From NCBI GenBank assembly GCA_016929695.1, contig JAFGII010000001.1:10629-74628 (forward strand): DNA of 64,000 bases, read 5' to 3'. The notes beneath the pieces are model-generated. The model made no database searches, was not told the DNA's origin, and worked only from the letters and a program-made list of their open reading frames with translations. This document shows, piece by piece, positions 4,074-64,000 of the stretch (positions are counted from its first letter, which is position 1; every line of letters starts with the position of its first letter). The translations under genes were made by a program, and so were the position numbers. This stretch comes from Ignavibacteria bacterium. GTDB lineage: Bacteria; Bacteroidota; Ignavibacteria; Tepidaquicellales; Tepidaquicellaceae.

Positions 4074-4097
4074 CGGTTATGTTTATCAGATATGATT

Positions 4098-7000
4098 TTA
4101 CTTTACAACTGCAATTTTTATTATCTTTGTTTCTGTTGTGCCGTCTATTTCTGCTTCAATTACTCCGTAATATATTCCGCTTTGTACGTTTGATACATCC
4201 CATATTACTTCATTGTCGGAGTTGGAATAGTTGGAACCTGCAAGTTTTGTTATGAGTTCTCCCGATAAATCGAGTATTTTTATTTTTACAGTGCCGGCAT
4301 TTCCGTTTAAATAATATCGTATATATGTTTTTGTGTCATAAACGGGATTAGGCCAGTTGTAAACTCTGTCTGAAGGAAGTTTATCGGAATAAACAACAGG
4401 AGAAAATAAAGACTTGAAATTATTATTTGAGAAATATTTGTCTCCGTTAACGTTTTTCCAGAGTATGTTGTTTTCGAAATAATGATATCCGGTTCTGTAT
4501 GCATATAAATATCCGTCTGAGCCGTAAACTGCTATGCAAAGTGTGTCAGATGAATTAAATAACGCCGGTGTGCTGCCACCTGATATCCCTGTTTTTATCG
4601 GGAAACCGTTTAAAATCCTACCCTCCGTATTTACCGCATACATATCGCCTTCTGATGTAATTGTTAGTATGTCAATTAGTCCGTCGTTGTCAATGTCCGC
4701 GGAGACTATACCTGAGGATATATTGCCTTTTATTTTAGTAGAAGGAAAATAATCCATAAGTACTTCGTTTCCGTTAAATGCATATAGTTTCCCTTTATCT
4801 GCAATCAGTATTTCTTGTTTTTCATCTTTGTTAATGTCGGCTAAGGTAAAGGGAATTTTTATGCCCTCAATCCCGTAACGGGATAATATCTGTTTGTTAT
4901 TCAAGATTACCGAATTTGGGGAAGTCTTTATGTTGTCAACAGCGTTTATTCCTGTAATATTTCCCGTGGATATATACTGTGAATCAACTGAATAAACAAA
5001 TGATGTTGGTGATGTTTTTGATAACTGATATACCTGACCGCTGTTCGTATCTGTAAATCCCGTTTGGAGTGTAACAAGATTTTTATAATATATCATCCCG
5101 TCTGTACCAATTACTATCTTATTGGAATCGAAAACGAGAGGAGATGAAGTGAAATAATTTCCTGTTATTGTTTCGATAAGGGAATCTGTAATGTTAAAAT
5201 TATTGTCAAATTTAAATAATCCGAGGCTCGACGAATTTGGTGCGGTTTTTGATACGGCAATTAATCTGAGTGAATTCAGAGCAGGGGAATAACATAATGC
5301 AGGAGTAGTGATACCATATAAAGGTAATATATTTCCCGTCGAATCGGATGAGATTGGCATTCCGTTATTTTTAAATCCGTAAATCCCGTTAGATGTATTG
5401 ACGAATAGTTCCTCGATGTTATCCCCGTTTACGTCAAATGCGATAGGATTCGATGTTCCTGCAGAAGGCATACCTGTGTATTTAGGAAAGCCTTCTATAG
5501 GTTTAATAATATCCGAACCAATTTTCACTCTGAAAGTCATTGAGGTACCGATTGTATCAAAATGTGTAATGTAAATATTATTATTAGAAAGGGAATAACT
5601 GTAAGAATTTGGTATGGAATATGGAGAGAATTCATTTTTGTATATGTTTGCGGGAACATAGTGGTTACCGTTGTACCAGAAATCTACAAAAAAACCGTCG
5701 CCTGTAACTTCTCCGAAGATTGTATTATAAGTAACACCTATATTCTGAGAGCCCTTTGCCTCCTCTAAATCAACTCCTTTATGCTCTATTTCATTATTGA
5801 TTGTATTCGACTGAAATTTTGCATTAATAACGTTCTCATCAATGTGCCAGATAAGAATTCCGCCTCTGAAATTAGAAGTATCATCTATTGAACCCGGCAG
5901 ACTCCAGTCTAAATATGAGACATCAGTAACATTCCCGTCAATTTTTGTAATGTCATAACTAATGAAACCTTCCTGGTCTTTTGTATATAAAGTGGAATCT
6001 CTATGAGCCCTGTTCCTCGTATAAATCCGCTGACCTAAATTAAACGGATTTCTATTCCTGTTTTCAAGCAAGAAATATTCGGATGTATTTATCAGTACTT
6101 TATACATAGTTGATTCCTGTGCATAAGGAACGGAAGAAGCATTTATATTGAACTCTGCATTACCGGACGATAGTACAACAGGATTAATCCATCCGAGATA
6201 GTATTTCTCCCATGCTGAAGGTTCAGGAGGAAAAATCCCATTAAAACTGAATATAGATTGTCCGTCCATCAATCCGAATCTTCCGATTGCGGTTTTACCG
6301 TTAAATGTATTGAAAAGGTCAGGTAAACCGAGATAACTTCCAAAACTTCCAACTAAAATTCCGTTTATTCCTAATTCTATCAGATATTTCCCGGATATTA
6401 AATCAAGTTCCCTAAGTTCGGTTGAAGGAATAATTAAGGAATTTTGAATGAATATCCCTTCTGCAGTCTGATAACCGTTATATGAATTTCCGTAAAATTC
6501 TTTCAGATTCTTAAGTCCTAAATAAACAGAGGGAATGTCGTATGGAGTTGGGTCGTAACCGTAGATTGAAGATAAATCCACATCTCTGCCTGTACCTGCA
6601 TGAAATATTACAAAAGCGGTATTTTGCTGGTCATAACCCGAGAAATTAATTACGCTGTCGGCGGCAGCCCAGCTTTCCTTGAAGAATTCACCTAATTTAA
6701 TAAATGTCTCGTTTTTCTGCGGAGAATACATTTGCATCTTTTTTGACAGGGTAATCGTATTTCCATGGATTTCGTAATTAATGACTAGTTTACCTTTAGA
6801 AGACTTACGATAATAATTTTTCAGAAAGAGAAGATGGTCTGCAAAATATGCACTGTCATGAGGAGGTGAATCAATTACAGTATCCCTTTGAGTATTAGGA
6901 TTGTAATATTTATTCGATAAATCAAATTTTCCGTTGCCTGTGGATAAAGGGTCATTATCTTCTTGAAACTGAACCATAATGGCAACAACGGTAATTGTGT

Positions 7001-7157
7001 CTGCCGATGTTGCGTAAGGTTTATATTTATATTTTCGTTCAAATTGTGAAATATTGAGCGGATGTGATAACTGCAGTTGTTTCCTTTCATTCCATTGAGA
7101 AGCGGCAATTTGTGATATCAGAAGTAACGAAAAAATAAAATATTTAATATTCTTCAT
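4098..7157 (-). CDS. T9SS cargo: M6/InhA-like domain lacking HExxH + FG-GAP/VCBS-like repeats + Por_Secre_tail C-terminal domain
   Basis: 1019-aa ORF with a signal peptide. GSFGSYLGLPDLF sits where M6 domains carry HExxHxLGLPD, followed by ILIWHIDEN. Ca-binding-like DxNxDxxxE/D repeats (DVNGDNIEE, DINKDEKQE, DIDNDGLID). C-terminal NWPNPV...GIYYGVIE...IKIAVVK tail. Confidence 0.6.
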   Translation of the reverse strand: MKNIKYFIFSLLLISQIAASQWNERKQLQLSHPLNISQFERKYKYKPYATSADTITVVAIMVQFQEDNDPLSTGNGKFDLSNKYYNPNTQRDTVIDSPPHDSAYFADHLLFLKNYYRKSSKGKLVINYEIHGNTITLSKKMQMYSPQKNETFIKLGEFFKESWAAADSVINFSGYDQQNTAFVIFHAGTGRDVDLSSIYGYDPTPYDIPSVYLGLKNLKEFYGNSYNGYQTAEGIFIQNSLIIPSTELRELDLISGKYLIELGINGILVGSFGSYLGLPDLFNTFNGKTAIGRFGLMDGQSIFSFNGIFPPEPSAWEKYYLGWINPVVLSSGNAEFNINASSVPYAQESTMYKVLINTSEYFLLENRNRNPFNLGQRIYTRNRAHRDSTLYTKDQEGFISYDITKIDGNVTDVSYLDWSLPGSIDDTSNFRGGILIWHIDENVINAKFQSNTINNEIEHKGVDLEEAKGSQNIGVTYNTIFGEVTGDGFFVDFWYNGNHYVPANIYKNEFSPYSIPNSYSYSLSNNNIYITHFDTIGTSMTFRVKIGSDIIKPIEGFPKYTGMPSAGTSNPIAFDVNGDNIEELFVNTSNGIYGFKNNGMPISSDSTGNILPLYGITTPALCYSPALNSLRLIAVSKTAPNSSSLGLFKFDNNFNITDSLIETITGNYFTSSPLVFDSNKIVIGTDGMIYYKNLVTLQTGFTDTNSGQVYQLSKTSPTSFVYSVDSQYISTGNITGINAVDNIKTSPNSVILNNKQILSRYGIEGIKIPFTLADINKDEKQEILIADKGKLYAFNGNEVLMDYFPSTKIKGNISSGIVSADIDNDGLIDILTITSEGDMYAVNTEGRILNGFPIKTGISGGSTPALFNSSDTLCIAVYGSDGYLYAYRTGYHYFENNILWKNVNGDKYFSNNNFKSLFSPVVYSDKLPSDRVYNWPNPVYDTKTYIRYYLNGNAGTVKIKILDLSGELITKLAGSNYSNSDNEVIWDVSNVQSGIYYGVIEAEIDGTTETKIIKIAVVK

Positions 7158-7187
7158 AGAAATGTTTTCTGTTCGGTTATTAATTAT

Positions 7188-7222
7188 ACAAAAAAGAGCC
7201 CCGATAAAATTTACCGTGGCTC
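7188..7222 (-). terminator. Rho-independent terminator-like hairpin after porV
   Basis: Minus strand reads gagccacggtaaattttatcggggctc followed by tttttt. The 8-bp stem has one mismatch. Confidence 0.5.
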
Positions 7223-7248
7223 ATAAAAATTGTATTTTAAATATTTAA

Positions 7249-8346
7249 TTAAAAGTTAATTACAAATCCAAATCTCAGTGTATTTGCCAGCGGATGGGTG
7301 TCTTCAATTGTGCTGATATAACTGAAGTCAAATCCGTATAAACTATATCTGATACCTGCTCCAAGTGTGATGTATTTCCTGTTTCCGTAATCGGGGTCTT
7401 CATAGAAATAACCTGCTCTGAGAGCTATTAATTTCGGATTTCCGTACCAGTATTCGGCACCTACTGAAGACTGAATAGATTTGCCTATTTCCGATGGTCC
7501 ACCTTTCCAGGATGTAAATAATGCTTCATAAAATGCATCTGGTCTGTTTACCAATAATTTTGAAAAATCAGCCGCAAACGTAAGTTCATTCCCTTCGTTC
7601 TTGAATATTTTATATGCGATTCCGAGTCTCAGATTGGTTGGAATTGGATCTGCCTGGTCAGCGTCGACGTAGGAAATTTTAGGACCTAAATTTGACAAAT
7701 TTAGACCAAGAGATAATTTGTCTTTAATAATGCCCGGTCCTTTTGAAAATCTGTATAAGGCAGCTAAATCAAAACTCGTTGAAAAAGCAGTGCCGCTTCC
7801 TTTTTCATTACCGACTGAAACTGAGGAAAGATTGCTGAAAATGAATCTTGCATTGACTCCAAGTCCCAGGTCGGTTGTTACTTTTGTCGCATAACCCACT
7901 GCGAGAGCAAATTCGTATGCCTTATATTCTCCGAGTCTGTTCCCGAATTCATCAGTATGTATAATTGTACCTATGTTGAGATAGGTTAAACTGAGACCGA
8001 GTGTACCGTTAATAGATTCAATGTGCCTTTTTGCAGCGAGGTAATCATAAAACAGGTCTGAAATATTTAAACCGGCAAGCCACGGTGAATGTGTAAAGTT
8101 AATCTCGGTATGTTCTGTCTGAAAAGCCAGTCCAGCAGGATTCCAGTGCATTGCAGTTGCGTCATCTGCTATTGCAGTTCCTGTTTCACCCATAGCGCTG
8201 AATCTTGAATTCGGTCCGATTAATAAAAATGGTACGCCTGTTGATATCGTCTTCTGAGCAAATACTTCTGCTGAAGTAAATATTAAAAAACTCAATATTA
8301 GCACCGTAAAAAGTTTAAAGCCATTAGAACATCTTGAATTACTCAT
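7249..8346 (-). CDS. porV: T9SS outer-membrane shuttle protein PorV (LptO family)
   Basis: 365-aa ORF with a signal peptide. N-terminal GVPFLLIGPNSRFSAMGETGTAIADDATAMHWNPAGLAF signature, beta-barrel pattern and C-terminal F. Immediately downstream of porU. Confidence 0.8.
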   Translation of the reverse strand: MSNSRCSNGFKLFTVLILSFLIFTSAEVFAQKTISTGVPFLLIGPNSRFSAMGETGTAIADDATAMHWNPAGLAFQTEHTEINFTHSPWLAGLNISDLFYDYLAAKRHIESINGTLGLSLTYLNIGTIIHTDEFGNRLGEYKAYEFALAVGYATKVTTDLGLGVNARFIFSNLSSVSVGNEKGSGTAFSTSFDLAALYRFSKGPGIIKDKLSLGLNLSNLGPKISYVDADQADPIPTNLRLGIAYKIFKNEGNELTFAADFSKLLVNRPDAFYEALFTSWKGGPSEIGKSIQSSVGAEYWYGNPKLIALRAGYFYEDPDYGNRKYITLGAGIRYSLYGFDFSYISTIEDTHPLANTLRFGFVINF

Positions 8347-8376
8347 TTAGGGATTTCCTCCTGATAATTTATTTAA

Positions 8377-11300
8377 TTATTTTAATTTTACTATTTTTTG
8401 TATGGAACTGTTTGTGAACCCGCCGTCAGCGGTCTTGATTATTATTTTATATAAATACACTCCGTTTGCAATTGCATCGCCGTCCGCATCTCTGCCATCC
8501 CATTCTATTATAACATTCTTATCGAGTAAATTGTTTCGGGAAATTTCTTTTATTAATTTTCCGCCGACTGTGTAAATTTTGATCTCTGCGGATAGAGGAG
8601 AATCAAAATTATGCTGAAAAATGAAACTTGTATTTTCTTTGAAAGGATTAGGATAATTAGTGACATTATTAACGAATAAAGCAGTATTGTTTTTCACTTG
8701 AAATATAATTTCAGTTTCGCTGGGGTTGTTGTATGTGTCCCACGCTTTAACTTTTAGAGTATATTTGCCGTCTATAAGGTTTTGTAAGGGATATTCAAGC
8801 GTTCCGTATTGATATCCTGAAGTCGTATTGTAATATTGAGTAAGGTCTAATTTATTATTTTCTTCATCATTGATTATCCCGTCAATTTTATGACCTGTAG
8901 TGCCTGTCAAGTTGATTCCGCTTTCATCATAGAAATCTGCAATTATCTTTGTGTCCTGATTAACTAAATCGCCGGAACGGAAGTTGCGGGTATCCATAAA
9001 TAATGTTATTTCCGGACCCGTGGTATCAATGGCGGCATTGCTGTCTATACCGTTGATTACAAATCTTTTATTATATCCCGAACCCTGATTAATCTGGTCT
9101 TTGAAATATGCAAGAATTTTTCCGCTGCCGCTTCCGTATGATATATCCTTCGGTACAATAAATTCAATGTGCCATTTTCCGTTGCTTATATTGGTTTTCC
9201 CGCTGAATATCTTACCTCCGTCAAGGGTGAATATGAAATGTACGGAAAAATCAATAATATCAATTTTCTTATCTACATCGAATACTTTAAGGTCCATCTC
9301 ACCGTTGAAATCACTCCAGAATGTGGAGTCTGGTCTTAGTATGCTTCCTGATATTTTTATTTTTTGTAATGCTTTTATATAAGCAGTATCAGTATATGGA
9401 GTATTATTTATCGAATCAATCCGTGTAAAAAATTGGGGTATGCTTATGCGCAATGCCGGTTCACCGATTAAACAGAATTTAGCGTCATTATGGGAAAAAT
9501 TAGGAATCAGGTTTTTTGTTAAGTACATTGCGTTGCCGAAACGAATGGGCAGATTTAATGTGTCTTTCCTAAACATAAAAATCTCCCAGAGTTTATTATT
9601 AAAGATTGCATTTGGAGCGCTGTAAACGGGTCTGACGGATGAAACTACCGATATAGCGCCCTTATCTTTAATTGATACAAGTTCTTCACCTGCACTTATT
9701 AGGAAAGGGTCATCCCATCTTGAAAGGTCACAACTTGCTATGGTAAGCAGTGGATATTTATTTTTGTTCGTTAATTGCGGAATACTCTCATCCCGTACAA
9801 ATACGTGCTCATGTGCCCATAAATCAGTACTTCCGTGTCCTACGTAGTTGATAACTAATCTGCCGTCATTCCAGCCCTTTATAATATCAACATTTGCACC
9901 CGGTTTTCTCCTGCCCTGGGGAGTAATAACGGTCGGGTATGTAACTATGTATATTTTTTCCTTTTCGAAATCTTTTGGAGTAAATATTTCTGCGATTACT
10001 TCACACTGGTCTGTATGCATGCTCCCTTCTTCACCGTTAGGAGAAGATGTTGTCCATCCGTCATCGGCTACATACATAAGTTTTTTCTTCCATGAAGCGT
10101 TTGTTATAGAATTTTCGTAATCAATTATTTTATCAACGGCAATATTGGCTTCATTTATACTGTTTATGCAAAGTCTGCCTGTAGCAAAATCGGGAACTGC
10201 GGGTTCAGGTTCATTATTGTTTTCATTAATATCAGCAAGGAAATCATCGCTCGGATAACTGTAGATTTCATTAATATCCTCAGTTGACCTTTGTACAGTC
10301 GGCAAATAATTCTTCACGGAGAAATTGTATATGTTTTTGAAATCATAACTTCCGTCACCGAAGAACAGAATGTAAACAGGGGGTTCCTGCCAGTTAATAT
10401 ATGCATGCTTAATAAAATTTCTGATTGCGACCGGGTCAAGTACACCACAGGAAAATTCATTGTAAATCTGATTTACATCCACGACCAGCGTATTCAGTTT
10501 GTTTATACCGGGAGTTTCACGATACGCCTTCAATCTGTTTGCGGCTGATATAAATTCGGTAGGGGTAATTATTATATAACTTGCACCCTGAGTTATTCCT
10601 CTTAAATTCTGATTTGGTATTTTTCCGGGAGTTAAATTTGGTGTTTTATAGTTTTCTCCGGAAACTGAAATATATCTTTGTGGATTATTATATTCAATAT
10701 TGTCCTGAAACCTCAGAACTCCTCCGGAAAAAGATATTGGATTGATTATACTTACGTTGTAATTGTCCGTAACATTAAAAACTTTTATCCCCGATGCGGT
10801 ATAGGGAGATACTACATATTCAACTGTTGTATTTGTATCCGGTGATGTGAACATCAGATAGTTGTTCTGTACGCTGTTAAAACTTCTCCTGTAATGGATT
10901 TCATAAAAGTCATAATTACCTTTTACATTCGGCTGATTATACTGTGCCGGGAGTGATAATTTTAAATTTATTGAAGAAAATCCAGAATTAAGTGCATAAT
11001 ATTCTTCCACTAAATAGGATCTGAAATGAGAAAAATCACCTGACACAGGATATACGGAATAAAACTTTAAAAATGAAGAATTGTCATCTTTCAACTGGGA
11101 ATATGCGGATACGCTTGATGAATTGCCGAATCTCAACAGTAATCTAATATCGGAACCTTGTATATATCCCGGTAATTGTTTGGTGAAAGTGAATCCTTCG
11201 TTATAACTTATGTTCTGACTCAGCCATAAAGTGCCAGTAGAACCCAGATTTAATATTTCGGGTTTTTCGAAAAACTTATCATAAAAATAGTATAAAGGTT

Positions 11301-55042: not shown

Positions 55043-56437
55043 CTATCTCAGCAAAATCATTTTTCTTGTTTCACTGAAATTACCGGTTGTTAGTTTGTAA
55101 AAATATACTCCGCTCGAATATTCTGAAGCATCAAAGAATACCTCGTATGTCCCTGCACTTTGATTTTTATTCAACAGTACTTTGATTTCCTTACCTGTGA
55201 TATCATATATAACTATTCTAACAAAATCATCCAAGGGTAACGAATAACTTATTTTTGTTGAAGGATTGAATGGATTCGGAAAGTTCTGTGTTAGTTTAAC
55301 CTCATTGGAGATAAAACCATCACCTTTAATAGTTTTTGATTTTGTTAAATAAATTTTGTCTATTAATTCATTTTCCTCATTATATACTTTCAATGAAAAT
55401 GATTTAGGAGAAACGTCAAAAACACCAAAACAGTATGTCTCCATGGCTTTTATAGTGTACGATGCATAAGTTGGAATTCTCTTGGTACCTCCTGTCGGTG
55501 ATATTATTATATGATGTATGTTATCCACTAAATTATGCTGATAAAAATGATTATGCCCGGAAATTACCATATCAACTTCGTTGGGAACAAATATTCCCTC
55601 ACTCATTACGACCATATCAGGGTCCTCACCGTGACTTCCAGAACTGTATGCGGGTTTATGTGAAACAACAATTTTCCAAATTTTTTCTGTTTGCTCAATA
55701 TCCGATTTAACAAAATTATATTGCTCACTGTTTAGCCCGTCGGGTAATTCATTGTTGATGACTGTAAAATGTACATCACCGTAATCAAATGAGTAGTATG
55801 CCTGTGTCCCTGAATATATCGTCGGATTTTGTTCAAATGCCTTTATGTTTATATTATTAAAATAATTATAACCATCGTGATTCCCTGCAACTCCGAAGAA
55901 AGGAATTCTCGAAATTACGTTTAATTCGTTTTGCGTAAAGAATTCATTCTTCCAGGAACTGTATGTTGTATAATGACATAAATCTCCTCCCCAGATTAGA
56001 AACTTAGGATTATAGGACGGTATGAGTGCTGATATTTTATTATGTATATCAATTCCCACCTGACAATCCGCAAGCCAGACAAAACGAAATTTTTTCCCTG
56101 ATTGAATGCTTGTGTAAAAAGAATAACCGTCATAAATCGTATTTTGTTGGGAAGCTGAGTAAAAATATTTCATACCGGCAGATAAGTTGGTTAATGGAAT
56201 TCTGTGGACGTATGTAACGGGTATCGCTGAAGTAGTTAAATAAAATTCCGTAATTGCAGAGAAACCGTAATTTTTATTAGGACCGTAATTTACTGTAACG
56301 GCATCCGTAGTATTAGTTTCAACCATTATATAAACTGAATTTGTGGAAACAGACTGCAGGTACGGAGGCATAATAATATCCGCATAAAATTTTACGGGAA
56401 TAAACAGAAGTAAAATAATTAAAAAGACTTTTTTCAT
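55043..56437 (-). CDS. Secreted calcineurin-like metallophosphoesterase with T9SS C-terminal domain
   Basis: 464-aa ORF. Purple-acid-phosphatase-like N-terminal domain, GGDLCHY, GVAGNHDG and SGHNHFYQ motifs. C-terminal NFPNPFNP...GVYFYKL...RKMILLR. Confidence 0.8.
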   Translation of the reverse strand: MKKVFLIILLLFIPVKFYADIIMPPYLQSVSTNSVYIMVETNTTDAVTVNYGPNKNYGFSAITEFYLTTSAIPVTYVHRIPLTNLSAGMKYFYSASQQNTIYDGYSFYTSIQSGKKFRFVWLADCQVGIDIHNKISALIPSYNPKFLIWGGDLCHYTTYSSWKNEFFTQNELNVISRIPFFGVAGNHDGYNYFNNINIKAFEQNPTIYSGTQAYYSFDYGDVHFTVINNELPDGLNSEQYNFVKSDIEQTEKIWKIVVSHKPAYSSGSHGEDPDMVVMSEGIFVPNEVDMVISGHNHFYQHNLVDNIHHIIISPTGGTKRIPTYASYTIKAMETYCFGVFDVSPKSFSLKVYNEENELIDKIYLTKSKTIKGDGFISNEVKLTQNFPNPFNPSTKISYSLPLDDFVRIVIYDITGKEIKVLLNKNQSAGTYEVFFDASEYSSGVYFYKLTTGNFSETRKMILLR

Positions 56438-56900
56438 TTTTAAATCTCCTTCCCCCTTAAAGTTTCTATAACTTCAAGGAATATTTATATAGATTACAAA
56501 ATATTTTTTTTCTTGTAAAAAGTATTGAAATTTATTTTTCATTGCAAGTGAATAAAAAACGTTGCTGAACACAGAAATGGATTTGTTTATGGTTTTTTCA
56601 AATATATTTTCTACACACGAAACATAAAATCGTTTATGTCTATTCATAAAAATTTTAACAGATAACACTTGAAAAACGAAGATACTAAAAACATTTATGC
56701 ATATACACTGCAGATATTTTATTCCTTTTCAAATTTATTTAAAGATTTAATTAATAAACACACTTGAAAAGCATTTAATGACGTCTGTAAGTTGCAAAAT
56801 CCGGATAATCTTTCGATAAATTAAGAAATTAATCATATTAACTGGGAATGCTTTTAAAATATGATTTATTCTTTTAAATATTTATATTATAAAAAAATAT

Positions 56901-57266
56901 ATGAGAAAAAAAATATTCATATTACTTTCATTCGGGCTTTTTTTATTATTCTCAAATCTTTATTCTCAGGATGACAGATGGCTTTATCTAAAAAGTATTG
57001 ATGATATTTTTGTTTACTATGATACCGAGACTGTTAAACAAGGTGATAATTCGACGATTGTTTTGCTTAAATTTATTAATGTTGATGATAATGTCAACCA
57101 GTATGTTATATATAAAATGGAATTTTATCCCTGTAAGGATTATTACAAATTAATAACTGTTACTATATATCCTAAGGAGGGCTTTCCTTTTACCTATACG
57201 TACAATGAGATTAAAGAAATAATTTCAGATTCATTCGAAGAATCCGCATACAGACTGTTTTATTGA
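56901..57266 (+). CDS. Hypothetical secreted protein
   Basis: 121-aa ORF with a signal peptide. The W.Y...DIFVYYDTETV pattern is vaguely like surface-adhesin-E-type domains. Tentative. Confidence 0.4.
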   Translation: MRKKIFILLSFGLFLLFSNLYSQDDRWLYLKSIDDIFVYYDTETVKQGDNSTIVLLKFINVDDNVNQYVIYKMEFYPCKDYYKLITVTIYPKEGFPFTYTYNEIKEIISDSFEESAYRLFY

Positions 57267-57424
57267 AAGCCTTTTTGCTGTACAATTTAATAAAATTTAT
57301 TTCAGCAAAGTTTTCATTCCTTAGAGATTTATATAACAAAGATGCTGAAAAATCTTAGCAGAATTAATATTTCTTCTGTTGATATTGTATATTTTTTTGT
57401 CTCGTAAAATATTATTTTTATTTA

Positions 57425-58213
57425 ATGAATAAATTAACTTTTTTCATAACATTTTATTTGATTTTAATTTTAATATGCAGTCCTGCAAATCTGCAGACGG
57501 AAAAAAAGAAATTTACGGTAATTATTGACCCCGGACACGGCGGGAAAGATCCGGGCACGATTGGATTGTCAAAAATTTATGAAAAAGATATTAATTTGTC
57601 TGTCTCGTTAAAACTTCGAAATTATCTTCAGAATAAATACGATGATATTAAGGTCGTTATGACAAGAGAAAAAGATGAATTCATCGAATTAAAAGAAAGG
57701 GGAAATATAGCAAATAAAAATAGTGGAGATCTGTTCGTAAGTATTCATTGCAATTACAAGAAGAAAGAAGAGAATGATAAAAACGGGTTTGAAATTTATA
57801 TTTCTGATTTTTCCAGACTGCCCGAAGCGGAATATTATACTAAGTACCAGAATCCGCTGTTCAGTACGAAAGATTGGGATACTAACTCTCTGGACTGGAT
57901 TGAGTACAGCAGTTTATTGGTTCCGGTTTATCAGAATATATATCAAAGATGGTCTGAAAGGTTCGCAAGTATATTGGAACTTGAGATGACTAAAAATACT
58001 GTCATTCTCAGCAGGGGAATTAATCAGGAAGGATTTTTCGTACTGGTGGGTGCCTCTATGCCGGTTGTTCTGCTCGAATCAGGTTTTTTGTCGAATAAAG
58101 CGGACGAGACCTATCTTAAAACAGAAAAAGGTCAGGAAGACGTCGCTAAAGCACTTTATAAGTCAATTGTCTATTACAAAATGGATTATGAGTTTGATAA
58201 AATGGAGTTCTGA
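57425..58213 (+). CDS. N-acetylmuramoyl-L-alanine amidase (Amidase_3)
   Basis: 262-aa ORF with a signal peptide. VIIDPGHGGKDPG, LFVSIHCN and VLLESGFLSN motifs. Confidence 0.85.
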   Translation: MNKLTFFITFYLILILICSPANLQTEKKKFTVIIDPGHGGKDPGTIGLSKIYEKDINLSVSLKLRNYLQNKYDDIKVVMTREKDEFIELKERGNIANKNSGDLFVSIHCNYKKKEENDKNGFEIYISDFSRLPEAEYYTKYQNPLFSTKDWDTNSLDWIEYSSLLVPVYQNIYQRWSERFASILELEMTKNTVILSRGINQEGFFVLVGASMPVVLLESGFLSNKADETYLKTEKGQEDVAKALYKSIVYYKMDYEFDKMEF

Positions 58214-58214
58214 A

Positions 58215-58246
58215 TAAAAAAAAAGCCGCTTTAGCGGCTTTTTTTA
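58215..58246. terminator. Bidirectional rho-independent terminator between convergent genes
   Basis: aaaaaaaaagccgct-tt-agcggcttttttt, flanked by an A-run and a T-run. Confidence 0.7.
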
Positions 58247-59131
58247 ATGATGGTTTACAAACTTTTCCAACTTTATTGTGTATCCGTTGCTTTCAAGAAC
58301 TTTTTTTACTTCGTTTGCTGTGTCTTTATCGTTAAAGACTCCTACCATCACATAAAATATTGTTGAGTCTTTTTTGGGTATGACCTGTAGGAATATATTC
58401 TCATATCCCAGAGACTCAAGTTCTCCAATTAGTTCTTTCGTATCATAATGTCCGGAAGTTTTCACAATTTTCAGTGTATATCCGGATATGTATTCATCCG
58501 GTAATTCTGAACTGTTAAAAATGTTTTCTTGAAAGTGCTTTCTGTATATATTTGAGTTAGCTTCGTCAATATTTGGTGATAATATTTTTACTTTTACCTT
58601 TTTGAAGGTATAGGATTGCTTGAGTTCATTGTATTGCTTGGATATTACATCTTCAAAAAGATTTTCCGGTCTGAATCCCTCTATCTCACTCTCGCCGAAA
58701 TTCTCAAATCCGGAGAGCTCCTTTTCGGGATTATAGATTTCTATTCTGACTTGTGCTAATCCGCCCATACCAATTTCCTCTTTCGCTGCTTTAGATAGGT
58801 CAATTATTCTGCCTCCTATGTATGGTCCTCTGTCGTTGATTTTCACTATTACTTGCTTGTCGTTTGAAAGGTTTGTTACCTTTACAAATGTGAAGAACGG
58901 TAGTGTTTTGTGTGCAGCAGTTAATTCGTTTGTATTGAATATTTCACCGCTTGCTGTTCTTCTGCCGTGAAATCCCGGTCCGTACCAAGAAGCAGTTCCT
59001 TCCTGGACAAAACCAGCTAAGTCTTCTGGTGAATCCGCTAATAAATTATACGAATCACTAATTGGATTTACTAAAATTAATGCGAATACTGTGGTAATTA
59101 ACAATAGTGCATAAATTTTGAGTTTGTTCAA
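58244..59131 (-). CDS. rlpA: Septal ring lytic transglycosylase RlpA family protein with C-terminal SPOR domain
   Basis: 295-aa ORF. DPBB motif [19 protein letters not shown]...[10 protein letters not shown]-terminal SPOR-like [16 protein letters not shown]. Confidence 0.8.
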
Positions 59132-59384
59132 GTTTTACTTCTCCTCTTTATATTTTCAAATTTATTTTTACGCATTAAAGATTTAGCATTCCCTCATTTT
59201 GCTAATTCTTTATGTCAAAGAACGTTTAATTTTTTAAATTTGTTCCTTATAAAATGATAAATATACTTACTTGTATTTCTAATGTCAATAGAAAAATATT
59301 TTTTGGATATTAACTTTTTTATTTATATAACATTTTAGAAGATATATCTAACTGTCATATAAATATAATAGTTATGATTTCGTA

Positions 59385-60635
59385 TTATACCCACCCCCTT
59401 AATTTACAGGCTTCAGCAACTCTTGCGACGGCTACTACCATTGCAGCTAAACGCGGATGGACTTTTTTCTCACGAATAGACTCGGCGACTGTCTTGTATG
59501 CCTTTGACATCTTATGAGCTAATTTTTCATATACTTCTGATTCTTCCCAGAAAAACGAATAACTGTCCTGAACCATCTCGAAATATGAAACCACAACACC
59601 TCCTGCTGATGCAAGTATGTCGGGTATTACAAAAACATTATTTTTATATAGAATTATGTCGGCTTCGGGTGTTGTCGGACCATTCGAGAGCTCGCATACT
59701 ATCTTTGCCTGTATATTCTTGGCATTTAAATGATTAATTGAATTTTCAAGTGCTGCCGGGTATAAAATGTCTACTTTTTGTTCAAGAACAGATTCCCTTG
59801 GTATGTCTATCGAATTCGGAAATCCTGAAATAGTTTTATTTTTTAATTTATAAGTTACTAATTCTCTTGGATTTAGCCCGTTTTCGTTAAATATGCCGCC
59901 TTTTGAATCGCTTACCGCAATTAGTTTTCCGCCTCCAAGAATCTCATCGTGCAATAAAGCAGCCCTCTGTCCTGCGTTTCCAAAGCCCTGTATGGCATAA
60001 GTTCCGGTCGGGTCTATGTTGTGGTGTTTGCACGCTTCCCTTACGCAATATACTCCGCCTCTCGCTGTTGCGTCTCTTCTGCCTTCTGTTCCTCCGATTT
60101 GCCTAGGCTTGTTCGTCATTACTCCGGGCTGATGCCTTCTTGTTATTGTTTCGTATTCATCCATCATCCATGCCATTGTCTGCGGATTGGTATATACATC
60201 GGGAGCAGGAATATCTTTTGCTGTTCCGATATAATCCGAAACGGCTCTTATGTATCCTCTTGCTATATTTTCGAGTTCTCTCTCGGAGAGTTGCTTCGGG
60301 TCACAAACTACTCCCCCTTTTCCTCCGCCTAAAGGAAGGTCAACTACCGCAGTTTTCCAAGTCATCCAGCATGCTAATGCCCTTATCGTGTCTATGGTTT
60401 CATCTTTATGAAATCTTATCCCTCCTTTGGCAGGACCGCGCGCAAAATTATACTGAATTCTGTATGCGGAAAAAATTTTTGTGTTACCGTTATCCATCTT
60501 TACTGGAATCGTAAATGAAAACTCCCTCTGGGGCAGGGAAAGTAATCCGATTGTTGCATCGTCGAGGTGAAGTAATTTTGCGGCTTCAACTACCTGTTTT
60601 TGTGAAACATGAAATGAATTATATGATTCTATCAT
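59385..60635 (-). CDS. gdh: Glutamate dehydrogenase (Glu/Leu/Phe/Val dehydrogenase family, about 415-aa type)
   Basis: 416-aa ORF. Catalytic LPLGGGKGGV and dinucleotide fold IQGFGNAG. Confidence 0.9.
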   Translation of the reverse strand: MIESYNSFHVSQKQVVEAAKLLHLDDATIGLLSLPQREFSFTIPVKMDNGNTKIFSAYRIQYNFARGPAKGGIRFHKDETIDTIRALACWMTWKTAVVDLPLGGGKGGVVCDPKQLSERELENIARGYIRAVSDYIGTAKDIPAPDVYTNPQTMAWMMDEYETITRRHQPGVMTNKPRQIGGTEGRRDATARGGVYCVREACKHHNIDPTGTYAIQGFGNAGQRAALLHDEILGGGKLIAVSDSKGGIFNENGLNPRELVTYKLKNKTISGFPNSIDIPRESVLEQKVDILYPAALENSINHLNAKNIQAKIVCELSNGPTTPEADIILYKNNVFVIPDILASAGGVVVSYFEMVQDSYSFFWEESEVYEKLAHKMSKAYKTVAESIREKKVHPRLAAMVVAVARVAEACKLRGWV

Positions 60636-60640
60636 TGAAT

Positions 60641-60817
60641 TTAATTATTTTTTTCTTTTTCTTTCTTTATATCGTTTTTGTCGTCATCTATTGAAATTCT
60701 GTACCAGCAGTTCTTGCATACAAGAGCCCTGTCAATATTTAACAGAATTTGCTGCCAGGAAGTCAGGGGATAATTGCAGTGTGGACACCTGTCAAAAATC
60801 TTGTTTTTATCTTCCAT
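60641..60817 (-). CDS. Unlisted 58-aa zinc-ribbon ORF
   Basis: Hand translation: MEDKNKIFDRCPHCNYPLTSWQQILLNIDRALVCKNCWYRISIDDDKNDIKKEKEKNN. GGGAG lies 10 nt upstream. Overlaps the upstream gene end by 11 nt and stops 5 nt before the gdh start. Below the ORF-track length cutoff. Confidence 0.45.
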   Translation of the reverse strand: MEDKNKIFDRCPHCNYPLTSWQQILLNIDRALVCKNCWYRISIDDDKNDIKKEKEKNN

Positions 60818-63809
60818 TGCCCGCTACTCCCGGTTTCGTTATTATTCCGATTTTTTGATGAGCATTCATTTTTATGGTTATAGGTTTATTAAATATAAGA
60901 TGTTTGACGAATTTCTTCTCGTCTGCAGGTTTTCTGTCCAGTATCCAGTTCCAGTCAAGAAACGTATTTTCTGTATTTGTGTTGACCGTAAAATATCCAA
61001 TCATAAATGATGTCAGATTCTGAAAGAAGTGTGAGCCCTGAGACGGTTCTATAATCATATCTTTCATCCCCGCTTCAATTATGGTTTTGGCTCCGGATAT
61101 TTGTGACCAGTTTACGGGTATTCCCAGCCACGGGTCAAGTGTTCCCCATCTTCCGACTCCTATTAACACATAAGGTCTTTTTAAATTCAGTAACTTACTG
61201 TTAAAAGAACTCACTTCGCCTGCTACTTCTCGCGATAAAGCACGCTCGAATTTGTTTACGTCCACGTAAACGATATCATAAATATTGTTAATCGTTCCGT
61301 TACCAAGTACTTCTGTGCTTCTGCATATCAGGTCTTCCTTTTTTATGGCAGAAATATTTAAATCTTCCGTAAACTGACTGATTACAAACGGTCGCATCTG
61401 CAGGACACCAAATTCCTTGGGCTGATCTTTTGGAACGGATAAATTAACCGCAAATTCTATTTCGACAGGTGTTCCCATTCCCCAGGAACCCATATCCAGC
61501 AATAATTCAAGTATATTCGGAAGTGGAAATATTTTGTTCTTTAAAATCGGGGCAAAAGTAACAAGTCTTGAACCCACCCTGGAAATCCCGTCGTATATGG
61601 CATAATTTTCGTGAGAATAAGTAGAACCTACGTAATGTAAAGTACCGTCTTCCTCTGCAGAGTGTATATCGTAGGATTTTGTAAACGCCTCCTGTATTAT
61701 GAATTCAGGGTCGTTATTTTCTCTTTTGGTTTCAAGGTCTAATGCATAAAATGATTTCTGATTATTAATAAGAGTTTCTTTCGTATTATGAAACTGAATT
61801 AATCTTGTTGGATACTTCGGACAGAATCTGACGCAGTTTCCTCCTTCTACAATTGTTTTGCCAAGACCAAGAGCGACTGATATAACTCCGTCTTTCGCTA
61901 CCATCGGCGGAAGCGGATAAAAATTGTATGTTTTCGCTACTCCGGAAAAGTCTGGATAGAAACGGTTCTTGTGCTTTTTACCGACCATTCGCTGTATGAT
62001 TACAGCCATTTTTTCTTCTTCTAACCGGTATGATGTTATTTTAAAGTAATCTTTTGCACTGTTGCTGTATGTTGAAGCATAGATCAGTTTAATTGAATTG
62101 ATGAGGTCATTGAATCTGGTGTAAGGATTCGGGTCGTTATTCGGAATCATATATGTATCATAAACTCCCGCAAAAGGATGATATTGTGAATCTTCGAGCA
62201 GACTTGAAGACCTGACAGATAGGGGAATTTTGACAATGTCGAGAAATGAAACTAAATATGCAATTACTTCGTCAGAAAATTTTTTGGCTTCGAGAAATTT
62301 CATTTTTAATTTATGGTCGTCTTTGCAGTCCAGAGCAAAATTTTTCAGATTGTTGTCTTCCATGAACTGGTCAAATATATCGGTTCCTATTACGACTGCG
62401 GGGGGAACATCTATCTGGATACCGGGTAATTTATTGCTTATTCCGTAGTTATTTATCAGTATATTAAGGAAACTCAGTCCTCTTGCCTTTCCTCCGAGTG
62501 CTCCGCCGCCTATTCTTGCAAAACTGTTGGAAGGGTCAAATGTGTCTTTATTGAAATCGGTTATTATACCCCTTGCTCGTATTTTTTTGTATTCTTTTAA
62601 TGAGATTATAAGATGCTGCCTTAAATCCTCAATTGATTTGAAATCTTCAACACTCTGGGGTCTCAGTTTGTCTGCCAGCCAGAATTCCGTTCTTGCTTTC
62701 AACCAGTTTGAAAATTCGTTTCTCTCACCGTGATATTTAATAGATTCGGCGGGAATGTCATTTAATGTCTGCTCCAGAGATAATAAATCCGAAGCCCTTC
62801 CGACTTCTGTTCCGTCAGGCATTCTGAATATAAAGTCTCCGAATCCAAAATACTGCGTCATGAACTGCCGTAATTCGTTTAGAAAATGAGGGGACTGCTT
62901 CAGTAAAAAAGAAACTCCGAGTCTTTTTGCTTTTTTTTCGTTACTGGGCTCGGAAGACTGCAGTAATATTGGAATGTCGGAATATTTTTTTCTTACTTCT
63001 TTGGCAAACTGGAAACCCGAATCCAGATTTCTTTTTCCGTCTTTGTAATATTCTATATCTGAAATAATTCCTAGTATGTATTCCTTGTATTCATTGAAAT
63101 AATACATTGCCTCTTCGTACGTATTGCAGAGTAGAATTTTCGGTCTGGCACGCATTCTCAGATATTTATGCGATAGATTTATACCTTCTGTGATTATTCT
63201 CTGAGACTGTTTTATTACCTCTGTGTATATTATGGGTAAGAATGACGAGTAACTTCTTATATCATCTTCGACTACAATGATGCTTTGTACACCGACAAGT
63301 CTTGTGTCGTTTTCAAGATTGAGTTTATCTTCAAGTGACTTTATTATTCCCAGAATTAATCTGTAATCACCCTGCCAGATAAATATCTTTTCAAAAACTG
63401 AAGTATCCTGTTTCAGAATTATTTCGGTTAACTCTCTGTTGTCAAATGAAAGTAAAATTACGGGAGTTTTAATGTTATTCTCTTTCATTTTTTTCGCAAA
63501 CTGAACGGGCGGTAAATCCTCAGTGTGTAAGGTGGTTATTACAAGGTCGAATTTTTTTTCTTCTTTGATTAATGAAAGAGCTTCTAATGCACTTGATACT
63601 CTCGTAATTTCGGGAGAATGGCTTAAATGCAGTCCGAGATATTCATTGCGGATTAACTCGTAAAGCCTTCCGTCTTCTTCAAATAGATATAGGTCGTAGA
63701 GACTCGAGACTAAAAGAACATCTCTGACTCTCTTTTTCATTAAATTCTGAAATCCCTGGAATCTTCTTCCGTATCCGTGTTCAACCCAGCTGGAATCAAA
63801 AGTTTTCAT
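60807..63809 (-). CDS. Receiver-domain / PEP-pyruvate-binding (PPDK_N ATP-grasp) fusion protein
   Basis: 1000-aa ORF. A degenerate REC-like module comes first. A second REC has VVEDD, IISDI, LLQSS and LLKQSP. The PPDK_N-like region has GGKARGLSFLN and VRSSSLLEDS. No swivel-His (TSH-type) motif or PEP-utilizer TIM domain noticed. Confidence 0.75.
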   Translation of the reverse strand: MKTFDSSWVEHGYGRRFQGFQNLMKKRVRDVLLVSSLYDLYLFEEDGRLYELIRNEYLGLHLSHSPEITRVSSALEALSLIKEEKKFDLVITTLHTEDLPPVQFAKKMKENNIKTPVILLSFDNRELTEIILKQDTSVFEKIFIWQGDYRLILGIIKSLEDKLNLENDTRLVGVQSIIVVEDDIRSYSSFLPIIYTEVIKQSQRIITEGINLSHKYLRMRARPKILLCNTYEEAMYYFNEYKEYILGIISDIEYYKDGKRNLDSGFQFAKEVRKKYSDIPILLQSSEPSNEKKAKRLGVSFLLKQSPHFLNELRQFMTQYFGFGDFIFRMPDGTEVGRASDLLSLEQTLNDIPAESIKYHGERNEFSNWLKARTEFWLADKLRPQSVEDFKSIEDLRQHLIISLKEYKKIRARGIITDFNKDTFDPSNSFARIGGGALGGKARGLSFLNILINNYGISNKLPGIQIDVPPAVVIGTDIFDQFMEDNNLKNFALDCKDDHKLKMKFLEAKKFSDEVIAYLVSFLDIVKIPLSVRSSSLLEDSQYHPFAGVYDTYMIPNNDPNPYTRFNDLINSIKLIYASTYSNSAKDYFKITSYRLEEEKMAVIIQRMVGKKHKNRFYPDFSGVAKTYNFYPLPPMVAKDGVISVALGLGKTIVEGGNCVRFCPKYPTRLIQFHNTKETLINNQKSFYALDLETKRENNDPEFIIQEAFTKSYDIHSAEEDGTLHYVGSTYSHENYAIYDGISRVGSRLVTFAPILKNKIFPLPNILELLLDMGSWGMGTPVEIEFAVNLSVPKDQPKEFGVLQMRPFVISQFTEDLNISAIKKEDLICRSTEVLGNGTINNIYDIVYVDVNKFERALSREVAGEVSSFNSKLLNLKRPYVLIGVGRWGTLDPWLGIPVNWSQISGAKTIIEAGMKDMIIEPSQGSHFFQNLTSFMIGYFTVNTNTENTFLDWNWILDRKPADEKKFVKHLIFNKPITIKMNAHQKIGIITKPGVAGNGR

Positions 63810-63847
63810 AAACTGAAAATAAATACATTAAGAGAAGAAATCAATAA

Positions 63848-63883
63848 TAAAAAAATAAACGGAGCAGTGATTGCTGCTCCGTT
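63848..63883 (-). terminator. Rho-independent terminator after the partial gdhA
   Basis: Minus strand reads aacggagcagc-aatc-actgctccgtt followed by tatttttttatt. Confidence 0.6.
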
Positions 63884-63905
63884 AAAAAGTATTATCGTAA
63901 TTAAA

Positions 63906-64000
63906 ATCAGACGACGCCGAGGTCTATCATTGCGTTTGCAACTTTAAGGAAGCCCGCAATATTCGCGCCATTGACATAATTTCCTGGTGTGCCGAATTTT
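63906..64000 (-). CDS. gdhA: C-terminal fragment of a second, GdhA-type glutamate dehydrogenase (runs off the window)
   Basis: Hand translation: ...KFGTPGNYVNGANIAGFLKVANAMIDLGVV*. It closely resembles the E. coli GdhA C-terminus as I remember it (NYVQGANIAGFVKVADAMLAQGVI). Confidence 0.7.

Follow-up and report, generated by a model that had tools for sequence, protein, structure and literature searches.

The window analysed, a 64,000-nucleotide stretch of an Ignavibacteria bacterium contig (GenBank JAFGII010000001.1, positions 10,629 to 74,628), carries near its right-hand end a minus-strand gene cluster in which a large, uncharacterized protein of 1000 aa lies between two glutamate dehydrogenase (GDH) genes. 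In the order of transcription, these are gdhA, a terminator-like hairpin, the gene for the 1000-aa protein, a 58-aa zinc-ribbon gene, and a gene for a 416-aa GDH of the short type. The features are as follows (window coordinates).

63907..64000, minus strand: 3′ end of gdhA; the full gene encodes 452 aa and continues past the window end to position 75893 of the contig (C40), an NADP-specific, E. coli-type GDH.
63848..63883, minus strand: intrinsic-terminator-like hairpin (10-bp stem, 6 G-C pairs) followed by a T-run, between gdhA and the 1000-aa gene.
60807..63809, minus strand: gene for the 1000-aa protein, comprising pseudo-receiver, receiver, DUF5752-like linker, PPDK_N ATP-grasp domain and C-terminal "HFF" domain.
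63366..63737, minus strand: pseudo-receiver (REC1, residues about 25-148), with T92/T93 where the acceptor Asp is expected.
62856..63290, minus strand: true receiver (REC2, residues about 174-318), with E181/D182, D251 (codon 63057-63059), S285 and K304.
62499..62852, minus strand: DUF5752-like linker domain (residues 320-437), with invariant G324, H360, S367 and F376.
61341..62498, minus strand: PPDK_N-type ATP-grasp domain (residues 438-823), with GGK441xR443G, R533-S-S...E539-D540, E783/E785 and Q804-x-R806-P807.
60810..61340, minus strand: HFF domain (residues 824-1000), with invariant G884-x-G886-R-W-G889, L895-G896, E912 and P922-S-x-G925-x-H927-F-F (H927 codon 61029-61031).
60641..60817, minus strand: 58-aa zinc-ribbon gene (CPHC-x19-CKNC).
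59385..60635, minus strand: gene for the 416-aa short-type GDH.

This arrangement, including the tight packing of the last three genes, had been given in a preliminary description made from the sequence alone, and every coordinate and feature of that observation was confirmed. The stop codon of the 1000-aa gene (60807-60809) and the zinc-ribbon ATG (60817) give an 11-nt overlap, while the zinc-ribbon stop (60641-60643) and the ATG of the short GDH (60635) leave a 5-nt gap. The upstream gdhA, with the tail ...NYVNGANIAGFLKVANAMIDLGVV, ends at 63907-63909, and its product passes the NCBIfam equivalog for NADP-specific GDH (NF006929, 753 bits against a cut-off of 536). The hairpin with its T-run lies at 63883-63858. 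The 416-aa protein carries the Pfam domains ELFV_dehydrog_N and ELFV_dehydrog, and scores 532 bits against the NCBIfam model GdhA_Arch, below its cut-off of 750.

A Pfam scan of the 1000-aa protein placed PPDK_N (PF01326) at residues 438-823 (E 2.6e-34), with the motifs GGKARGLSF and VRSSSLLEDS present, and returned no PEP-utilizers (PF00391) or PEP-utilizers_C (PF02896) match. The only Response_reg (PF00072) match was a weak one to REC1 at residues 67-125, at 24.5 bits against a gathering cut-off of 30.2, although most homologues do carry a precomputed PF00072 hit. An AlphaFold2 model of the whole protein (pLDDT 83.2) showed two (beta-alpha)5 units, and Foldseek matched these to the receivers of PleD, LuxO, PorX, VicR and PhoP, including the PleD REC-REC pair. 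In an alignment of 21 full-length homologues of 38-86% identity, E181, D251, S285 and K304 of REC2 are invariant and D182 is conserved in at least 90%, whereas REC1 lacks the acceptor Asp, indicating that only the second domain is a true receiver. The linker region on its own passes the gathering cut-off for DUF5752 (PF19027; 25.0 against 23 bits), while within the whole protein it scores 17.2 bits; the homologue P0167 scores 25.5 bits.

In the ATP-grasp domain, GGKxRG, E783/E785 and Q804/R806 are invariant or nearly so in the same alignment. The best structural match is rifampin phosphotransferase (RPH; 5hv3, E 3e-11, an alignment from the full-length model that spans only 428 columns), with further Foldseek matches to PPDK structures 1kbl and 1dik, and a profile alignment to RPH recovered the VRSSxxxED...FAG..TY block. 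All NCBIfam matches cover the ATP-grasp only and fall far below the equivalog cut-offs, the best being NF004881 at 58.6 bits against 883, followed by PigC at 49.5 against 1300 and RPH at 25 against 999. Pairwise BLASTP against the canonical PPDK of the same genome, on contig C13, was too weak to map residues, and profile and fold matches were used instead.

Only 177 residues follow the ATP-grasp, and no TIM barrel was detected in Pfam or NCBIfam. Given the "GIPV" and "GSH" motifs, we tested whether the C-terminal domain could be a cryptic or permuted phosphohistidine swivel domain. The domain is modelled confidently (pLDDT 92.2, pTM 0.90), but the model has no PDB fold match at E <= 1e-3, there is no PDB sequence match and no Pfam match, and hhalign against the swivel domain of the genome's own PPDK gave a probability of 0.2%, so this reading was rejected. 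The invariant GxGRWG, E and SxGxHFF of this domain are retained across three paralogue classes, H927 lies at the start of the predicted helix 926-934, and in 301 genomes of the phylum the domain occurs only behind PPDK_N and never alone. The linker residue H360 was also considered as a carrier histidine, and was rejected because the receiver-less short paralogue lacks the linker domain yet keeps the linkage to GDH.

We next examined whether the adjacency to GDH is confined to this genome. In the 301 genomes of the phylum, at least 47 of 65 full-length copies have a PF00208 match less than 1 kb away, and 3 more have one within 2.5 kb; these counts are a hand tally and a lower bound. In six other lineages, Acidobacteriota, Lysobacterales, Marinimicrobia, Spirochaetaceae, Bacteroidales (including Segatella albensis DSM 11370) and Melioribacteraceae, 12 of about 18 informative loci have a GdhA next door, in four different orientations. 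About a quarter of copies are not next to a GDH. No other gene family recurs beside the gene, and the downstream genes in eight loci belong to unrelated families. An apparent 1507-aa open frame in one genome (G153) is an out-of-frame overlap with gdhA and not a fusion, and the N-terminal extensions of homologues of 1145-1557 aa contain no Pfam domains. A search of protein representatives clustered at 50% identity found 1222 clusters at E <= 1e-30, with members in Ignavibacteria, Bacteroidales, Prevotella, Acidobacteriota, Marinimicrobia, Spirochaetes and Gammaproteobacteria. Occurrence of this layout at BT1970-1973 of B. thetaiotaomicron was not confirmed; BT1971 is a catalase.

A second system was found on another contig of the same genome (C60), where a 428-aa GDH is followed by a receiver-less short form (576 aa) and then by a PPDK_N+HFF protein that carries a minimal Pol-beta-type nucleotidyltransferase domain (NTP_transf_2) with G-S-x9-D-I-D. 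In all 13 informative loci, which were picked without regard to GDH, a GDH directly precedes the short form and/or the nucleotidyltransferase protein. The N-terminal 345 aa of the latter have no Pfam or PDB relative. The 775-aa variants of the module sit beside fumarase C or HDOD proteins instead. A comparison with the PADLOC defence-system models gave no match for the 1000-aa protein, the zinc ribbon or the short form, and only the nucleotidyltransferase tail of the sister protein touched the PDC-S09 models weakly. The zinc ribbon follows every close ("type A") orthologue examined, with 16 invariant residues, and a gene was also called at this place in L023.

To determine whether paralogues pair one to one, the trees of 26 GdhA/REC-PPDK_N pairs were compared, giving a mirror-tree correlation of r = 0.83, with the observed pairing the best of 64 within-genome swap patterns. 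This signal would also arise from simple block duplication. A comparison of 22 partnered GdhAs with 20 GdhAs from genomes lacking the family gave only one discriminating alignment column (S31 against T/A), so that no partner-specific residue, insertion or signature of a modification site is apparent, in contrast to glutamine synthetase and GlnE.

The preliminary interpretation is partly supported, in that the reading of the protein as not a normal PPS/PPDK but a signal-controlled ATP-using enzyme tied to the glutamate node stands. The two findings named beforehand as fatal to it, a swivel His domain or a gdh adjacency limited to this genome, were both looked for and neither was found. Three points require correction. 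First, the protein does have a candidate phospho-carrier, H927, in a conserved C-terminal domain that had been left unassigned. Second, the widely conserved partner is the upstream 450-aa GdhA, which had been set apart behind the terminator, whereas the tightly packed zinc ribbon and 416-aa GDH are restricted to the type-A orthologue group. Third, the proposed function, kinase or nucleotidyl transfer acting on GDH, remains an inference.

Taken together, these results tentatively suggest, at somewhat less than even likelihood, that the 1000-aa protein is a response-regulator-gated, dikinase-type phosphotransferase dedicated to the GDHs encoded beside it. In this view, an unidentified histidine kinase would phosphorylate D251 of the second receiver, the first receiver would serve as a non-phosphorylatable adaptor, and the DUF5752-like domain would couple the receivers to the catalytic core. 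The ATP-grasp domain would bind ATP and, as in PPDK, PEP synthase and RPH, transfer a phosphoryl group to a histidine, here the invariant H927 of the obligately fused HFF domain. The phosphoryl group would then be passed to an acceptor, most likely on the GDH protein itself (GdhA and, in the type-A group, also the 416-aa GDH with the zinc-ribbon protein as adaptor), switching GDH activity in response to a signal. The analysis establishes the domain content, the conserved residues, the absence of a swivel or TIM domain and the genomic linkage to GDH, whereas ATP use, catalysis, histidine phosphorylation, the role of H927 and GDH as the target are inferred from sequence, predicted structure and gene neighbourhood. 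The carrier role of H927 rests on conservation and position alone, since the HFF domain has no structural or sequence relative among known phospho-His domains. The regulatory reading is consistent with the complete receiver of the long form and with the nucleotidyltransferase of the sister protein, as such domains drive GlnE/GlnD control of nitrogen enzymes and MNT-type nucleotidyltransferases AMPylate proteins. There is also a precedent in the PPDK-derived VadK, which autophosphorylates on His and binds methylcitrate-cycle enzymes (PMC13400623). Against it, most characterized relatives with this ATP-grasp (PPS, PPDK, RPH, PigC/HapC, HpeHI, MarK, GWD) phosphorylate small molecules or glucans and not proteins, GdhA lacks a partner-specific site, about a quarter of copies are not beside a GDH, and a terminator separates gdhA from the gene in this window.

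Of the alternatives, the one that survives best, although it is unlikely, is that the ATP-grasp/HFF unit phosphorylates a metabolite tied to the GDH reaction (2-oxoglutarate, glutamate, ammonia or the nicotinamide cofactor), by analogy with pyruvate to PEP, with the receiver merely gating flux. This would agree with the small-molecule or glucan substrates of most characterized relatives, with PEP synthase, PigC/RedH and RPH as the top NCBIfam and PDB matches, and with the absence of a partner-specific site in GdhA. The HFF domain also has a Gly-rich loop after a beta-strand and a helix N-terminus, a layout that we infer to be typical of small phosphate or nucleotide pockets. However, three paralogue classes are each tied to their own GDH paralogue in one-to-one gene pairs, where one metabolite enzyme would suffice for a single reaction, no conserved neighbour could consume a phosphorylated product, and fusion to receivers and to a minimal nucleotidyltransferase is typical of regulators. 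Less likely still, the gene may lie near gdh only because it belongs to nitrogen or carbon regulation in general, with its real target elsewhere (PII, GS, GOGAT or a transporter), or it may be a non-catalytic scaffold or sensor. The copies without an adjacent GDH, the fumarase C and HDOD neighbours of the 775-aa variants and the terminator favour this, but the adjacency holds in four orientations across at least seven lineages and for three paralogue classes, no other family recurs nearby, and the invariant ATP-grasp residues argue against a non-catalytic role. A self-contained relay from H927 to D251 of the same chain, as in a hybrid kinase, with output by binding to GDH or to another protein, is the weakest alternative, since the presence of H927 and a complete receiver pocket in one chain, the naming of some homologues as "histidine kinase" in database records, the description of VadK as a PPDK-derived histidine kinase and the lack of a cognate kinase gene near the locus are offset by the short and nucleotidyltransferase forms, which keep the same His module and GDH linkage so that the core works without an internal Asp acceptor, and by the fact that orphan response regulators are common.

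GDH sits at the junction of carbon and nitrogen metabolism, and in bacteria it is regarded as controlled mainly by transcription and effectors, unlike glutamine synthetase with its dedicated modifying enzymes. The recurrent pairing described here points to an undescribed layer of ATP-dependent, signal-gated control of GDH, and the family would add a new phospho-carrier fold to the dikinase superfamily and a new enzymatic output class to response regulators. Literature searches found no publication on this family, on DUF5752 or on GDH inactivation in Bacteroides. It is unlikely but not excluded that the PPDK_N+HFF unit is a previously unrecognized class of protein-directed dikinase, which uses a new-fold phosphohistidine domain to modify GDH covalently. 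That would give many bacteria, including gut Bacteroidales and Prevotella, a GlnE-like on/off switch for GDH, gated by a two-component signal in the long form and combined with protein AMPylation through the fused nucleotidyltransferase in the sister operon. It could then be the missing agent behind the reversible in vivo inactivation of Bacteroides fragilis GDH that was reportedly observed in the 1980s.

Among known systems, RPH and the PRK06241-type small-molecule dikinases (PigC/RedH/HapC, HpeHI, MarK) resemble the protein in the PPDK_N ATP-grasp, the lack of a PEP/pyruvate TIM barrel and the presence of a His-bearing domain C-terminal to the ATP-grasp, but here that domain is not the PF00391 swivel fold, two receivers and a DUF5752-like linker are added, and the gene is linked to GDH and not to antibiotic or aromatic pathways. 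PEP synthase and PPDK (PpsA, PpdK) share the ATP-grasp family and the presumed ATP to His chemistry, but the 1000-aa protein has no swivel domain and no PEP-utilizers_C barrel. VadK (Rv1127c) of Mycobacterium tuberculosis, a PPDK-derived enzyme without the TIM barrel that interacts with central metabolic enzymes to tune flux, follows the same logic as proposed here, with homology considered only for the ATP-grasp. VadK keeps the canonical swivel His domain and is not known to have a receiver, and its partners are methylcitrate-cycle enzymes instead of GDH. The parallel with GlnE/GlnD control of glutamine synthetase and PII is one of function only, a dedicated covalent-modification enzyme for a central nitrogen-assimilation enzyme, as there is no sequence relationship apart from the generic nucleotidyltransferase fold of the sister protein and modification of GDH is inferred. 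Finally, PleD-type response regulators likewise place a tandem receiver pair, one phosphorylatable and one adaptor, in front of an enzyme domain (Foldseek E 4e-08 to 1.5e-06), although in the 1000-aa protein the order is reversed, with the pseudo-receiver first, and the output is an ATP-grasp/HFF unit instead of GGDEF.

The ORF map of positions 56000-64000 and a re-reading of every start and stop codon confirmed the gene order given in the preliminary description, so that the observation itself holds. The following features lie on the minus strand, in the order of transcription:
63907-63909 (-), stop codon at the tail of a gdhA gene
63883-63858 (-), 10-bp G+C-rich hairpin with a T-run
63809-60807 (-), 1000-aa ORF
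60817-60641 (-), 58-aa CPHC-x19-CKNC ORF, overlapping the preceding ORF by 11 nt
60635-59385 (-), 416-aa glutamate dehydrogenase (GDH), after a 5-nt gap

The window corresponds to positions 10629-74628 of the contig (C40) in a 2.78-Mb assembly, and on this contig the upstream gene encodes a complete 452-aa GdhA that passes the NCBIfam equivalog for NADP-specific GDH (753 bits against a cut-off of 536). The 416-aa enzyme is of the short type, matching GdhA_Arch at 532 bits, which is below the cut-off of that model. The database gene call for the 1000-aa protein (P0001, 977 aa) starts 23 residues later than the ORF used here. However, within the additional stretch (positions 63741-63809, residues 1-23), F20 and L23 are conserved in at least 90% of 21 homologues and a helix is predicted at residues 7-24, both of which favor the longer 1000-aa start. 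The downstream neighbors at 55043-59131 are unrelated cell-envelope genes, an RlpA-like DPBB protein (58244-59131), an Amidase_3 protein (57425-58213), and a Metallophos protein with a T9SS sorting tail (55043-56437). Two of them have the same ORF lengths (295 and 262 aa) and the third nearly so (464 vs 465 aa), at the same places, as the genes annotated in a syntenic locus, L023.

A Pfam scan of the 1000-aa protein identified PPDK_N at residues 438-823 (E 2.6e-34), a sub-threshold Response_reg match at 67-125, and a weak DUF5752 match, with no match to PEP-utilizers or PEP-utilizers_C. All NCBIfam matches cover the ATP-grasp only and lie far below the equivalog cut-offs. An alignment of 21 full-length homologues of 38-86% identity, together with an AF2 model (pLDDT 83.2), resolved five modules:
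residues about 25-148, pseudo-receiver with no acceptor Asp, T92/T93 standing in its place
residues about 174-318, receiver keeping E181, D182, D251, S285, and K304
residues 320-437, linker domain that on its own passes the DUF5752 gathering score (25.0 against 23)
residues 438-823, ATP-grasp with invariant or near-invariant GGK441xR443G, R533-S-S...E539-D540, E599-K-M, E783/E785, and Q804/R806/P807
residues 824-1000, C-terminal domain with invariant G884-x-G886-R-W-G889, L895-G896, E912, and P922-S-x-G925-x-H927-F-F

A Foldseek search with the whole model returned rifampin phosphotransferase (RPH; 5hv3, E 3e-11), PleD (a REC-REC pair), and PPDK, and the profile of the 21-sequence alignment aligned the VRSSxxxED...FAG..TY block to RPH.

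Given the possibility that the C-terminal domain, here called HFF, is a cryptic swivel domain, residues 818-1000 were modeled alone with a 20-sequence alignment. Although the model is confident (pLDDT 92.2, pTM 0.90), Foldseek found no PDB chain with E <= 1e-3 (the best was 1zl0, E 0.02, TM 0.35), the profile found no PDB sequence, and Pfam returned nothing even at E <= 5. A comparison by hhalign with the swivel domain of the PPDK encoded by this same genome (contig C13) gave a probability of 0.2%. The domain is therefore not a PEP-utilizers swivel domain. H927 lies in the model at the start of helix 926-934, after a beta-strand followed by a Gly-rich loop, which is the geometry in which phosphohistidines usually sit, although this reading is an inference. 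A profile search of 301 genomes of the phylum found the domain in 63 genomes. Apart from three copies split by a frameshift or a contig end (open frames of 185-246 aa), it always lies within frames of at least 550 aa, at the places of the PPDK_N-bearing proteins found in the same genomes, and never as a stand-alone protein.

The family is large. A word-indexed search returned 7997 proteins among 8000 candidates, nearly all about 1000 aa long, and an exhaustive search of representatives at 50% identity gave 5016 clusters at E <= 1e-3 and 1222 at E <= 1e-30. Database names are generic ("histidine kinase," "PEP/pyruvate-binding domain-containing protein," "CheY-like"), and literature searches found no study of the family or of DUF5752.

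To test whether the association with GDH extends beyond this genome, 21 loci were taken from one-genome-per-species contigs, and 12 of about 18 informative ones have a 445-453-aa GdhA directly beside the gene, lying upstream co-directional, downstream co-directional, convergent, or divergent. The lineages are Melioribacteraceae, Acidobacteriota/Holophagae, Lysobacterales, Marinimicrobia, Spirochaetaceae, Bacteroidaceae, Prevotella, and Segatella albensis DSM 11370. Within the phylum, in an even sample of 301 genomes, 62 carry the family and 275 carry PF00208. By hand tally, at least 47 of 65 full-length copies have a GDH domain match less than 1 kb away and 3 more within 2.5 kb, a lower bound since only the top 150 PF00208 matches were considered. 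With one to four GDH genes in genomes of 3-4 Mb, chance adjacency would be well under 1%. Gene maps of 20 regions showed two orthologue groups. In type A, the kind found in the window, a gdhA of 453 aa (75-81% identical to that of the window) is followed by REC-PPDK_N, then a zinc ribbon, then a GDH of about 416 aa. In type B, a 446-aa gdhA is followed by a REC-PPDK_N paralogue with no zinc ribbon or second GDH, often in tandem with type A. The close relative P0003 has the same four-gene cassette, whereas P0011, another homologue, has only gdhA followed by REC-PPDK_N. No other family recurs beside the gene. In one Ignavibacteriales genome without gdh adjacency (locus L008, 8960-13956), the gene is followed on the opposite strand by five ORFs, of which two begin with receiver-like N-termini and one is 878 aa long. 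From their appearance alone these resemble a partner-switching/two-component cluster and may be a signaling input, but this arrangement was seen only once.

A second, independent GDH-linked system is present in the same genome. A tblastn search of the assembly and an ORF map revealed an operon on the minus strand of contig C60 (locus L022, C60:9000-23000), with the following genes in locus coordinates:
8736-10022 (-), 428-aa GDH
6944-8674 (-), 576-aa receiver-less PPDK_N+HFF protein (the short form), equal to residues 416-992 of the window protein (42% identity)
3762-6947 (-), 1061-aa protein, overlapping the short form by 4 nt

The 1061-aa protein has PPDK_N at 344-725, the same GxGRWG...SxGxHFF module, and a C-terminal NTP_transf_2 domain with G-S-x9-D-I-D. 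Its N-terminal 345 residues (6947-5913) have no Pfam or PDB relative and begin with an ...ERTKELNCLYLVEE... motif reminiscent of sensor proteins. We then examined 18 loci of such receiver-less paralogues, chosen only from the list of family hits in the 301 genomes. All 13 informative loci, from other genera, of the ~930-1070-aa type that matches the 1061-aa protein into or through its nucleotidyltransferase (NTase) region, a domain identified by Pfam only in the C60 copy, have the 428-aa GDH directly upstream, 7 of them with the short form in between, while one locus is cut by a contig end. In contrast, the four 775-780-aa variants without the NTase (loci L053-L056, genomes G297, G045, G137, and G081) are not GDH-linked. 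In the two same-genus genomes G137 and G081, this variant sits beside a 463-464-aa gene, which in the G137 copy scanned is class II fumarase (fumarase C), and in the two other genomes it sits beside HDOD (HD-related) signaling proteins. The Holophagae locus L020 has the order gdhA, GDH, short form, and then a second, more distant PPDK_N paralogue of the 1061-aa type, as judged without a scan for the NTase domain. In two further genomes all forms lie in one supercluster, with the order gdhA, GDH427, short form, NTase form, REC-PPDK_N in G089 (locus L062, C25:27500-44000) and GDH428-like, gdhA, REC-PPDK_N, short form, NTase form in G105 (locus L043, C7:139000-150000). Three paralogue classes of the same catalytic unit are thus each tied to their own GDH paralogue. 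A fourth GDH of the window's genome (C69:18157-19440; 427 aa, 43% identical to the 416-aa enzyme) has no PPDK_N-type neighbor, so that one GDH is unpartnered.

For 26 adjacent GdhA/REC-PPDK_N pairs, the distance matrices correlate with r = 0.83, a value reached by 0 of 2000 random permutations, and in the six genomes with two pairs the observed pairing is the best of all 64 swap patterns. This fits specific protein-to-protein partnerships, although block duplication with retained linkage would give the same pattern. An orthologous small zinc-ribbon ORF follows every type-A gene examined, that is, 11 sampled genomes plus L023, four of them recovered only by a six-frame motif search. This ORF usually overlaps or abuts both neighbors, and its 31-residue core has 16 invariant residues (CPHC..L..W...LL..D.A..C..CWYRI) between variable charged tails. 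At locus L030 it is present without the downstream GDH. It therefore belongs with the type-A enzyme rather than with the GDH, and its role as an adaptor is a guess.

Taken from the sequence and genomic data, the analysis establishes an ATP-grasp of the dikinase type with its nucleotide and metal-binding motifs conserved, an obligately fused domain with an invariant His, a complete receiver, and strong, replicated genomic linkage to GDH. What we infer is that the enzyme uses ATP to phosphorylate H927 and passes the phosphate on, that receiver phosphorylation gates this reaction, and that the acceptor is the neighboring GDH protein. The interpretation in the preliminary description, of a signal-controlled ATP-using enzyme tied to the glutamate node, is partly supported. 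A protein target is supported by the one-to-one paralogue pairing, the regulatory-type fusions (receivers and a minimal nucleotidyltransferase), the lack of any conserved product-consuming neighbor, and the precedent of VadK (PMC13400623). Against it, most characterized relatives phosphorylate small molecules, and partnered GdhAs carry no distinguishing residue, as a comparison of 22 partnered GdhAs with 20 from genomes lacking the family differed at one column only, S31 against T/A. We consider a functional link to GDH very likely and an active ATP-using enzyme likely, whereas a role for H927 as carrier or catalytic residue is only slightly more probable than not, and GDH protein as the target remains tentative.

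Compared with known systems, the protein is inferred to work like the RPH/PigC branch of the dikinases, but it fails two defining features of every PEP-utilizing family, the swivel domain and the TIM barrel or the equivalog scores, and should therefore not be filed as a PEP synthase, a PPDK, or an RPH. By fold and by pocket residues it is a genuine response regulator. If the protein-dikinase reading is right, the regulatory principle would be new.
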